Positions 49,506-64,000 of a DNA stretch of 64,000 bases are shown piece by piece. Under the pieces are notes generated by a model that was not told where the DNA came from, did no database searches, and saw only the letters and a program-made list of their open reading frames with translations. Numbering within the stretch: the first letter of the stretch is position 1; every line of letters starts with the position of its first letter. The position numbers and the translations under genes were made by a program. Source of the stretch: a virus. Its lineage: Duplodnaviria; Caudoviricetes. Where the stretch lies: positions 1 to 64,000 of IMG/VR virus record IMGVR_UViG_2871105481_000001; one strand, given 5' to 3'.

Positions 49506-49961
49506 ATGAAACAACTAAAGATTGAAATTCCTGAAGGATTTAAAGTAGATGAATTTAATCCAGAATCAGGTATTATTAAATTCAAACCTATACCACAGAA
49601 TATTAAAGATATAATTAAAACACTAGATGATGTTTATAACTATCATGATATAGATAAAGATGAATTTAACAGAAGGTTCAAATCATGTACTGAAGATGAA
49701 ATTGCCTATAAACATCTAAAGTTAATAACTTCTGCTTTAAACGAAGGTTGGGAACCAGATTGGGGGAATGGACAATGGGATAAGTGGTTCAACTGGTTCA
49801 ACATGCCATCAAAAAATGGCCGGTTCTCGTTCTGCGACTCCTTTAATCGGTACTCGTTTTCGCATTGCTCTGCCCGCCTTTGCTTTAAATCCAAAGACCT
49901 TGCTCAGTACGCTGCAAAGCAATTCTTAGAGGTGTATGAGAAATATATGGTTATTAAGTAA
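49506..49961 (+). CDS. putative DGR target protein 1 (C-terminal variable region)
   Basis: C-terminus 'ALNEGWEPDW...FSFCDSFNRYSFSHCSARLCFKS' is shared with 63583..>64000. Confidence 0.8.
   Translation: MKQLKIEIPEGFKVDEFNPESGIIKFKPIPQNIKDIIKTLDDVYNYHDIDKDEFNRRFKSCTEDEIAYKHLKLITSALNEGWEPDWGNGQWDKWFNWFNMPSKNGRFSFCDSFNRYSFSHCSARLCFKSKDLAQYAAKQFLEVYEKYMVIK
49734..49891 (+). repeat. 158-bp repeat copy 1 (DGR variable region VR1)
   Basis: 144/158 identical to 63841..63998 by manual alignment. Confidence 0.9.
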
Positions 49962-62538: not shown

Positions 62539-63576
62539 ATGAAAACAACCATTTATGGAAGTCTTCAAAACAACTATAACAAAGATATGAATTATTTAGA
62601 ATTAAAACAAGACACTACCCTTTCTCATAATTCGGAAATGCAATATTTCAATTCATTTTTCCAGGATCTTTTAAAAGGGTTACAGAGTGGTAAATACATT
62701 ACGGACAAGGGTACTAAATATTCTCTTACCACAATAAGACATTATAAAAATGCTTACGACTGGTTTGTTTTTTGGGAAGCTCACATTGGTATTCAATTAC
62801 AAATGAATGAGGTAATATACAATACTGTTGAAATGTTTAAAACGTTTCTTAGCCATTATCACCTAACATTAAATAGTGTATCAGTTATTATCTCTAAAAT
62901 TAAATCTGTCCTAAACTTTGCTTTTAAGTCGGGTAAGCATTTTTGGAATGGAACAGGAATAAAGATTGTAAAGGAAAAAAATCCAAAAACGTATTTAACA
63001 ATTGAAGAATTAAAGCAAATGCGTTCATGTAAATCTTTAACTGCTGCTGAAGAAATGGTTTTAGACAATTTTACAATTCAGTTTTATATTGGTCAAAGGT
63101 ATGAAACAACACAAAGATTCTTAAAGCAACCTTTTGCGTTTACAAGACAACATGGAGAATTTTCATATATAGAAATTGAAGCATATAAAACTGGAACCGT
63201 TTCATATATCCCATTAGGAGAGATAGTTAAGGGTATTATACAGAAATATAATGGTTTAGTGCCTGTTTATTCTAGGACTTACATTAATCGGATAATTAAA
63301 GTGGTTGCGTTTAAAGCAGGATTAATTCAATTAATTGCAACTCGTGAAACGCGTAATCAAAAAGTTGTTAGAGAGTTTATTCCAAAATATTCTCTTATAT
63401 CTACACACACTGCAAGAAGATCCTTAGTATCAAATCTTAAACAATTAAATTTTTCAAATCAATCAATAATGGGAATTACATCTCATGGTACAGAAGTACA
63501 GTTAAATGACTATAACAGGTCACAAGTAGAAAAAATAAAATCAATATTAGGTCACGAATTTTTCCTGAAAATATAA
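62539..63576 (+). CDS. int: tyrosine recombinase / integrase with SAM-like N-terminal domain
   Basis: Catalytic pattern R ('GQRY'), K ('KTG'), HxxR ('THTARR'), H ('TSH'), Y ('NDY'). Confidence 0.9.
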   Translation: MKTTIYGSLQNNYNKDMNYLELKQDTTLSHNSEMQYFNSFFQDLLKGLQSGKYITDKGTKYSLTTIRHYKNAYDWFVFWEAHIGIQLQMNEVIYNTVEMFKTFLSHYHLTLNSVSVIISKIKSVLNFAFKSGKHFWNGTGIKIVKEKNPKTYLTIEELKQMRSCKSLTAAEEMVLDNFTIQFYIGQRYETTQRFLKQPFAFTRQHGEFSYIEIEAYKTGTVSYIPLGEIVKGIIQKYNGLVPVYSRTYINRIIKVVAFKAGLIQLIATRETRNQKVVREFIPKYSLISTHTARRSLVSNLKQLNFSNQSIMGITSHGTEVQLNDYNRSQVEKIKSILGHEFFLKI

Positions 63577-63582
63577 AATCTC

Positions 63583-64000
63583 ATGAAGAATTTAGAAATC
63601 ACTCAAGAAGCAGCAGTAAAAGCATACTCTGAAGCTTCAAAAAATGGAAAACTATTACTAGAAAATCTTTTTGGAAAAAATGTATTTCTTGTAGATATTA
63701 AAGAAAGAATTAAATCTATTGAAGATGCAATTAATGAACTTGGAGAAAATGATGATGAAGTAATTGTATTAAGAGCCTTAGAAGTAGCTGGTATAAGTAA
63801 TCATATTTTATATACACAATGGTTAGTAGTTATTACCAAAGCTCTAAACGAAGGTTGGGAACCAGATTGGGGGAATGGACAATGGGATAAGTGGTTCAAC
63901 TGGTTCAATATGCCATCAAAAAATGGCCGGTTCTCGTTCTACTGCTCCAATTATCAGTACTCGGTTTCGGTTTGCGCTTCCCGCCTTTGCTTTAAATCAA
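63583..64000 (+). CDS. putative DGR target protein 2 (runs off the window)
   Basis: Open from ATG 63583 to the window end: ...ALNEGWEPDW...FSFYCSNYQYSVSVCASRLCFKS. Confidence 0.8.
   Translation, partial: MKNLEITQEAAVKAYSEASKNGKLLLENLFGKNVFLVDIKERIKSIEDAINELGENDDEVIVLRALEVAGISNHILYTQWLVVITKALNEGWEPDWGNGQWDKWFNWFNMPSKNGRFSFYCSNYQYSVSVCASRLCFKS
63841..63998 (+). repeat. 158-bp repeat copy 2 (DGR variable region VR2)
   Basis: 144/158 identical to 49734..49891. Confidence 0.9.

Follow-up and report, generated by a model that had tools for sequence, protein, structure and literature searches.

An apparently complete diversity-generating retroelement with three targets in an Elizabethkingia prophage

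A prophage of Elizabethkingia (Weeksellaceae, Bacteroidota) very probably carries a complete diversity-generating retroelement (DGR) that acts on three target genes and, within the record, lacks Avd. The window analyzed here is the stretch of bases 1-64000 of a 72,248-nt record (IMGVR_UViG_2871105481_000001) that IMG/VR classes as a provirus (incomplete); record coordinates continue the numbering of the window, and locus L004 denotes record positions 63000-72248. The cassette runs in the order T2, T3, TR, a 105-nt spacer, RT, and a 98-aa ORF, and T1 is a remote target 14.5 kb upstream of the TR (Table 1). Because the closest proteins to T2 come from assemblies of Elizabethkingia anophelis, E. 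bruuniana, and E. miricola, we take the host genus to be Elizabethkingia.

Table 1 Features of the element in record coordinates (the window ends at 64000)
Feature	Position	Strand	Basis and remarks
T1, target gene, 151 aa (P0001)	49506..49961	+	ORF, translation, phrog_11581 match
Block of ~190 nt containing VR1	49730..49925	+	Sliding identity; near-identical to T2 63837-64032
VR1	49817..49882	+	Pattern match; mutagenised tract 49833-49872
T2, target gene, 161 aa (P0002)	63583-64068	+	ORF, phrog_11581 match; cut by the window end at 64000
VR2	63924..63989	+	Mutagenised tract 63940-63979
T3, target gene, 123 aa (P0003)	64080-64451		ORF; own VR; beyond the window
VR3	64307-64372	+	BLAST of VR against the record; beyond the window
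Long-range RNA helix	64460-64471 with 64570-64580		Covariation in 40 loci
TR, 66 nt, intergenic	64491-64556	+	A-to-N pattern; 491 nt past the window end
Rfam RT-17 match	64577-64660		Above gathering score
Hairpin, then A-run	64581-64594		Comparative RNA folding
DGR reverse transcriptase, 320 aa (P0004)	64662-65624		RVT_1, phrog_1423, motifs
98-aa basic OB-like ORF (P0005)	65611-65907		Homologs, model; overlaps the RT stop

One template and three variable regions

The initial annotation, made from the window alone, had aligned 63841-63998 with 49734-49891 and read the pair as the variable regions of a DGR, and every detail that it described was reproduced. The alignment is gap-free over 158 nt. 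Its first 99 nt contain 2 differences, both synonymous (CTA/TTA, Leu; AAT/AAC, Asn), and the next 42 nt contain 12, all at codon position 1 or 2, which change 9 of 14 residues; identity restarts at CGCCTTTGCTTTAAATC. At 7 of these 12 sites, A is present in one of the copies. A degenerate pattern built from the bases shared by the two copies matched the window at the VR1 and VR2 places only, and had no match in 100 shuffles. The same annotation had argued that neither copy is the template and had placed a third, A-rich copy and an RT gene past base 64000, to be sought by extending the contig. Both are present downstream, the template being the separate TR. The TR sequence that it had predicted agrees with the real one at 54 of 60 positions; of the six misses, five are extra adenines, which the prediction had allowed for ("possibly with more A"). 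It had counted two variable regions; both are real, but the total is three, since T3, with a VR of its own, sits between VR2 and the TR outside the window, and the element accordingly has three targets. With the TR, the RT, and adenine-only mismatches all present, the DGR interpretation is supported.

The A-to-N pattern of the TR occurs at exactly four places in the whole record (the TR and VR1-3), all on the + strand, and the reversed control gave 0 matches. Over a 64-nt core, the TR differs from VR1, VR2, and VR3 by 16, 15, and 16 mismatches, respectively. Every one of these 47 mismatches is at a TR adenine, and the 43 non-A positions are the same in the TR and all three VRs. As adenine occupies 21 of the 64 positions, the probability that all 47 would fall on A is ~2e-23, which excludes chance as the source of the adenine-only pattern. 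Third codon positions of the VRs never vary. At adenine sites 64492, 64496, 64550, and 64554 one base is common to every VR, and these sites bound the rewritten tract. Between them, within 64507-64546, are the 17 mutable adenines, in seven AAY codons plus CAG, ACT, and ACC; computed from these codons, ~1e10 protein variants per target are possible, without stop codons. The TR is short (66 nt with a 40-nt mutable tract). In T1, T2, and T3 alike the VR ends 25-29 codons ahead of the stop, with the seven AAY codons in frame.

The 3′ end carries a fixed difference, CCCACCTATG in the TR vs. CCCGCCTTTG in the VR, the latter being the same in all eight VRs examined (three near-identical prophages included, see below). 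Judged by sequence, this difference is consistent with the expectation for an IMH*/IMH boundary. No BPP-1-like hairpin or cruciform was found 3′ of the VRs, and DNA folds of the 64 nt after each VR were similar to those of shuffles (z about -0.2).

Strain-to-strain turnover and recombination among targets

We compared the record with three near-identical Elizabethkingia prophage loci, which are 98.5-99.3% identical in the compared stretches. A 75-nt TR region is identical in all four genomes, while the eight VR copies from these genomes are all mutually different at adenine-templated sites. The initial annotation had held that variation spread evenly in related genomes would speak against a DGR; the eight VRs vary at A sites, with only 2 non-A changes. 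Since the TR is invariant while every VR differs among near-identical prophages, we conclude that the DGR was recently active, and turnover of this kind supports the conclusion strongly as far as sequence comparison can. The T1 and T2 orthologs in other Elizabethkingia are near-identical save for the VR, and because the T1 orthologs vary in the same way, T1 also appears to be rewritten in spite of its 14.5-kb distance. Elizabethkingia includes opportunistic pathogens, so these hypervariable prophage loci are relevant to strain typing.

The same comparison bears on the possibility that the cassette is a fossil, which once diversified three genes and is now inactive, so that the VR differences are historical. 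Dead copies do exist: in a near-identical prophage from another assembly (L088:3869-4266), only the first 58 residues of the RT remain, yet the TR and the two VRs next to it are intact, and this locus is a natural dead copy of the same DGR and a model of the fossil state. In the record studied here, however, the RT frame is intact with all catalytic motifs, as are the TR, the RNA helices, and the 98-aa ORF, and prophages with 99% identical surroundings carry completely different VRs, which implies very recent turnover. We consider a fossil unlikely.

The target genes also exchange sequence. The 5′ halves of T1 and T2 are only ~45% identical in DNA, vs. a near-identical block of ~190 nt around the VR. 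In addition, T1 of the window has a T2-type segment ahead of its VR (GNGQWDKWFNWFNM), whereas its orthologs in other strains (P0276 and P0277) have a T3-type segment (SNWDERKYYPWFEM). Block sharing and swapped pre-VR segments indicate that VR cassettes are shuffled among the paralogs by recombination, and this accounts for the 99 nt with just two synonymous changes between the copies. Recombination, with the recent exchange of the ~190-nt block between T1 and T2 and the swapped segments in the T1 orthologs, is also what one would expect if the paralogs had simply diverged under diversifying selection, or by gene conversion, without any reverse transcription. Selection, however, cannot explain why 47 of 47 differences fall on the adenines of a fourth copy that is non-coding, and it leaves unexplained both the invariant third codon positions and a DGR-signature RT 105 nt from the TR. 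The adenine-only pattern effectively refutes divergence of this kind, to which we attach almost no probability.

Reverse transcriptase, flanking RNA, and a putative accessory protein

The P0004 protein matches Pfam RVT_1 (73.5 bits) and phrog_1423 (E 2.6e-117). It carries IGNYLSQ and YADD, which are invariant across an alignment of 35 relatives; I/LGxxxSQ is the typical signature motif of DGR RTs. With the RT as query, and one genome per prokaryotic species, 80 loci were recovered, and 70 of them have an adenine-biased TR/VR pair ahead of the RT; for most of the others, the fetched stretch includes little upstream sequence. It is hardly credible that the RT comes from a different kind of retroelement (a retron, a group II intron, or a defence RT such as DRT/Abi) and is close to the repeats by coincidence: the NCBIfam matches to group II RT/maturase, Drt3a, retron St85, and Drt2 that would suggest it are far under curated cut-offs (122 vs. 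300, 69 vs. 200), the signature motif is DGR-typical, there are no intron RNA domains and no msr/msd, and the TR/VR pair recurs upstream of the related RTs. Among the relatives, the RT frames of L023:4001-4459, L054:4001-4126, and L060:4001-4165 meet early stop codons; these could be pseudogenes, assembly errors, or products of another genetic code.

For 40 loci, the 243 nt preceding the RT start were aligned, and the alignment was folded with RNAalifold. In the consensus, a segment 19 nt upstream of the TR pairs over 12 bp with one lying 13 nt downstream, and the TR is looped out; directly after this helix come a 4-5-bp hairpin, a nearly invariant adenosine run, and a bipartite stem. Over the 24 pairs of the consensus, 95.6% of cells are paired, vs. 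39-47% when the partner is slid by 1-3 columns, and double-change cells number 214 vs. 21-61; the observed covariation was reached by no shuffle. The structure is seen by comparison alone, the single-sequence MFE fold of the whole spacer being not significant (z -0.75). At record 64556-64573 (L004:1557-1574), the TR is directly followed by a 7-bp hairpin, GTTTTTAATATAAAAAC, which folds significantly when taken with the next one (z -3.1). It was dropped as a general element because it is not conserved in the 40-locus alignment.

The TR-RT spacer is matched end to end by the Rfam family RT-17 (RF03020; 41.4 bits vs. a gathering score of 40.4), the only family listed by an Rfam E-value scan of record 63000-72248. 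Three relatives score 45.5-54.8 for RT-17 at the equivalent place, and a fourth is matched by RT-18. None of the 16 closest loci reaches the gathering threshold of RT-17, although their sequences align and covary with the copy in the record. RT-1 to RT-19 were described only as motifs near RT genes, with a DGR role proposed for RT-10, which in BPP-1 is found between the TR and brt (Weinberg et al. 2017, PMC5737381); here RT-17 lies between a verified TR and an RT. The hairpin and the bipartite stem are common to the RF03020 model and the Elizabethkingia spacer, and both covary in the 40 loci. The TR-enclosing helix is absent from the model, and the 5′ end of the RT-17 match abuts that helix in the record.

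This layout resembles the cPRT Stop of BPP-1, for which cryo-EM shows an 11-bp duplex (given as 11-13 bp in the description of the element) between upstream and downstream segments, a stem-loop, and adenosines that dock in G:C pairs of the duplex, and which is needed to start and stop cis-primed cDNA synthesis in the Bordetella phage (bioRxiv 10.1101/2023.10.23.563531). In the Elizabethkingia RNA, likewise, a duplex encloses the TR and is followed by a stem-loop and then by adenosines. The cPRT Stop survey covered Avd-bearing DGRs only (bioRxiv 10.1101/2023.10.23.563531). The element described here places the orphan family RT-17 in a verified DGR and, with the TR-enclosing helix, extends the cPRT-Stop architecture to Avd-less DGRs.

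Avd is present in about 74% of DGRs, and is not strictly defining; its gene normally sits between the target and the TR. PF05635 (Avd) had no match at E<=1 across the 72-kb record, an incomplete provirus, and the cassette contains no helical ORF of Avd size. Instead, the RT is followed by the 98-aa ORF, whose homologs adjoin the RT in 64 of 81 loci, usually overlapping its stop codon. The homolog is fused to the C-terminus of the RT in three loci (L033, L043, and L046), and in Bacteroides-type loci (L044, L047-L050, L063, and L068) it is located between the target and the TR. No Pfam family matches the ORF, and its only match is phrog_19665, of unknown function. The family is basic, with a median pI of 8.9 (9.4 for the copy in the record), and in this it resembles Avd, for which Wu et al. 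(2018, PMC5758913) give a pI of 9.5. Their accessory classes are avd, HRDC, MSL, and the acidic CH1 of 160-169 aa, besides the rare PAG1-4, and a lineage without avd is noted; the basic 98-aa protein fits none of the first four classes.

The AlphaFold model of the 98-aa protein has a pLDDT of 89.7. In VIA-align, OB domains make up nearly all of the best-scoring neighbours (RuvBL2 domain II, SSBs of bacteria and mitochondria, PriB, and Teb1), with Z of 4-6.3 (in the middling range) and rmsd of 2.2-3.0 over 61-70 residues. Foldseek hits are weak, with E-values of 0.01 or worse, and the ESM Atlas offers one lead, Phi29_Phage_SSB in one neighbouring cluster. Because the Z-scores are moderate and the Foldseek E-values weak, we hold the OB fold of the model to be probable, and the role of the protein to be a matter of inference: it is most likely a nucleic-acid-binding accessory subunit in the place of Avd.

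Taken with the known DGR mechanism, these parts would work as follows. The adjacent RT would make cDNA from an RNA that covers the 66-nt TR along with its structured flanks, placing random bases opposite the 17 template adenines. The cDNA would then replace the homologous tract in any of the three targets, two of them in tandem just upstream of the TR and the third 14.5 kb away, and the 3′ limit of rewriting would be set by CCCACCTATG in the TR (as IMH*) vs. CCCGCCTTTG in the VR (as IMH). The long-range helix, the hairpin, and the A-run are laid out as a cPRT Stop, which positions and terminates cis-primed reverse transcription in the Bordetella phage DGR, and the 98-aa protein would serve as a nucleic-acid-binding accessory.

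Small targets, a recurrent cassette, and known systems

The cassette recurs far beyond Elizabethkingia. About 45 Bacteroidota loci, spanning Flavobacteriia, Sphingobacteriia, Chitinophagia, and Bacteroidia, have VRs in two or three tandem members of the T1-T3 family together with a TR, an RT, and the 98-aa ORF. Among the 31 ORFs tested from the record's final 14 kb, T2, T3, the RT, and the 98-aa ORF alone recurred widely (34 to 80 loci); two others match one locus each, and the remaining flanking genes match none. As only these four genes recur while the flanks differ, we take the cassette to move as a unit. This four-gene module with a basic OB-like protein is a concrete candidate for how the Avd-less DGRs (~1/4) work. 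In some loci (L028:2936-3793 and L039:2928-3788), two target-family domains are fused into a protein of ~285 aa with two VRs, and many target-family members of 250-305 aa in the databases show two matched stretches (e.g., P0126 to P0141).

Directly upstream of T2, at 62539-63576, is a 345-aa ORF resembling tyrosine recombinases (phrog_1, E 4e-11; a faint Phage_int_SAM_5 match), which is kept in Elizabethkingia prophages and absent from other cassette-bearing loci. A second, stronger integrase lies on the minus strand at record 71019-72248. ARAGORN found no tRNA-like gene downstream of the DGR in record 63000-72248, and scans for sigma-70 promoters and terminators gave nothing informative.

The targets belong to a very large family with no known domain or fold. 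T1, T2, and T3 match phrog_11581 only, whose function is unknown; they have no match in Pfam or NCBIfam, and a PDB profile search gave chance-level hits only. None of 198 T2 homologs has a Pfam domain. The family comprises 3,751 representatives at 50% identity (E<=0.001) and is mostly viral by ESM Atlas records, the clusters found being unnamed. The AlphaFold model of a target (pLDDT 80.5) is helical at residues 8-89 and 140-158, and its Trp-rich segment and VR have pLDDT <50. Foldseek against the PDB gave no hit at E<=0.001, and the best VIA-align Z was 4.0, to helical proteins. These comparisons did not reveal the C-type lectin scaffold that is usual for DGR variable proteins (Mtd, TvpA, DUF1566, and FGE-sulfatase types); the small scaffold may be a reduced form of it or a new one.

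RTs more distantly related to this one act on large proteins, mostly of 280-470 aa and without a Pfam match. By inspection, the C-termini of these proteins (…GGSAxxGAxAG…GSRLCF or GFRLCR) look similar to variable regions of the Mtd type; the VRs of the small targets end in ASRLCF. When the small targets were aligned by hhalign with Mtd-like targets of related DGRs, 24 VR columns alone were aligned, at 43% probability. Because only VR columns align, the VR with its SRLC-encoding boundary looks like a portable unit that has been grafted on unrelated scaffolds.

The T1-T3 proteins have a pI of 5.3-6.8 (acidic to neutral) and, by inspection, no evident signal peptide. Their genes sit outside the structural genes, in a + strand arm with HNH, RuvC-like, antirepressor, and integrase-like genes, and with ArdA in relatives. 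We put forward the hypothesis that the targets are intracellular or virion-internal binders. A broader reading, which we offer tentatively and consider somewhat improbable, is that this large lineage of Bacteroidota and phage DGRs has exchanged the Avd pentamer for a small and basic protein with an OB fold, which some members fuse to the RT, and aims mutagenesis at small acidic early-arm proteins without an evident signal peptide, which would be diversified intracellular binders and not receptor-binding tail proteins. If true, it would mean an accessory subunit and a functional class of DGR target that are both new, and variable host defence proteins or proteins of rival phages are examples of possible partners. 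The targets are not tail proteins, and learning their partners would widen the uses known for targeted hypermutation in phages.

Our literature search, which is weak evidence, found no description of the 98-aa partner, of a link of an OB fold or RT-17 to DGRs, or of Elizabethkingia DGRs; large DGR catalogues almost certainly hold such cassettes among unannotated viral targets (PMC8144416).

Compared with the prototype BPP-1 (mtd-avd-TR-brt), the Elizabethkingia DGR shares a 3′ VR, an intergenic TR next to the RT, adenine-only mismatches, an AAY-rich TR, and an RT with IGxxxSQ and YxDD. It differs in having no avd in the record, with the 98-aa basic OB-like ORF after the RT instead, and in having three targets, one of them remote, vs. 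one in BPP-1. The targets are proteins of 123-161 aa, acidic and encoded in a non-structural arm, vs. a tail fibre, and no C-type lectin fold of the Mtd type was detected in them; no hairpin flanking the VRs was seen, and the TR is about half as long.

Likenesses are also found among the Avd-less DGRs, which Wu et al. (2018, PMC5758913) describe under Architecture A and "Lineage 3", of which 3A occurs in Bacteroides and relatives only. They share with the present element a TR-RT core without avd, HRDC, or MSL, Bacteroidota hosts, and multiple tandem targets; two tandem targets occur in 13% of the set reported there.

The closest annotated phage RTs are those of the crAss-like phage DGRs (crAssphage LMMB, cr56_1, and others), with 63-70% nucleotide identity over the RT and, for LMMB, identity over part of the upstream spacer as well; crAss hosts are also Bacteroidota. 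In LMMB a 93-aa hypothetical ORF directly follows the RT (L006:4394-4675), a possible member of the accessory family of the 98-aa ORF. The targets in crAss-like phages, however, are large proteins of the tail fibre or tail collar that carry Mtd-like or sulfatase-like annotations, in contrast to the small proteins here. The Elizabethkingia element bears a textbook DGR signature, and it validates the reading of such footprints from raw sequence; set beside these systems, it is a known mechanism in an under-described variant.
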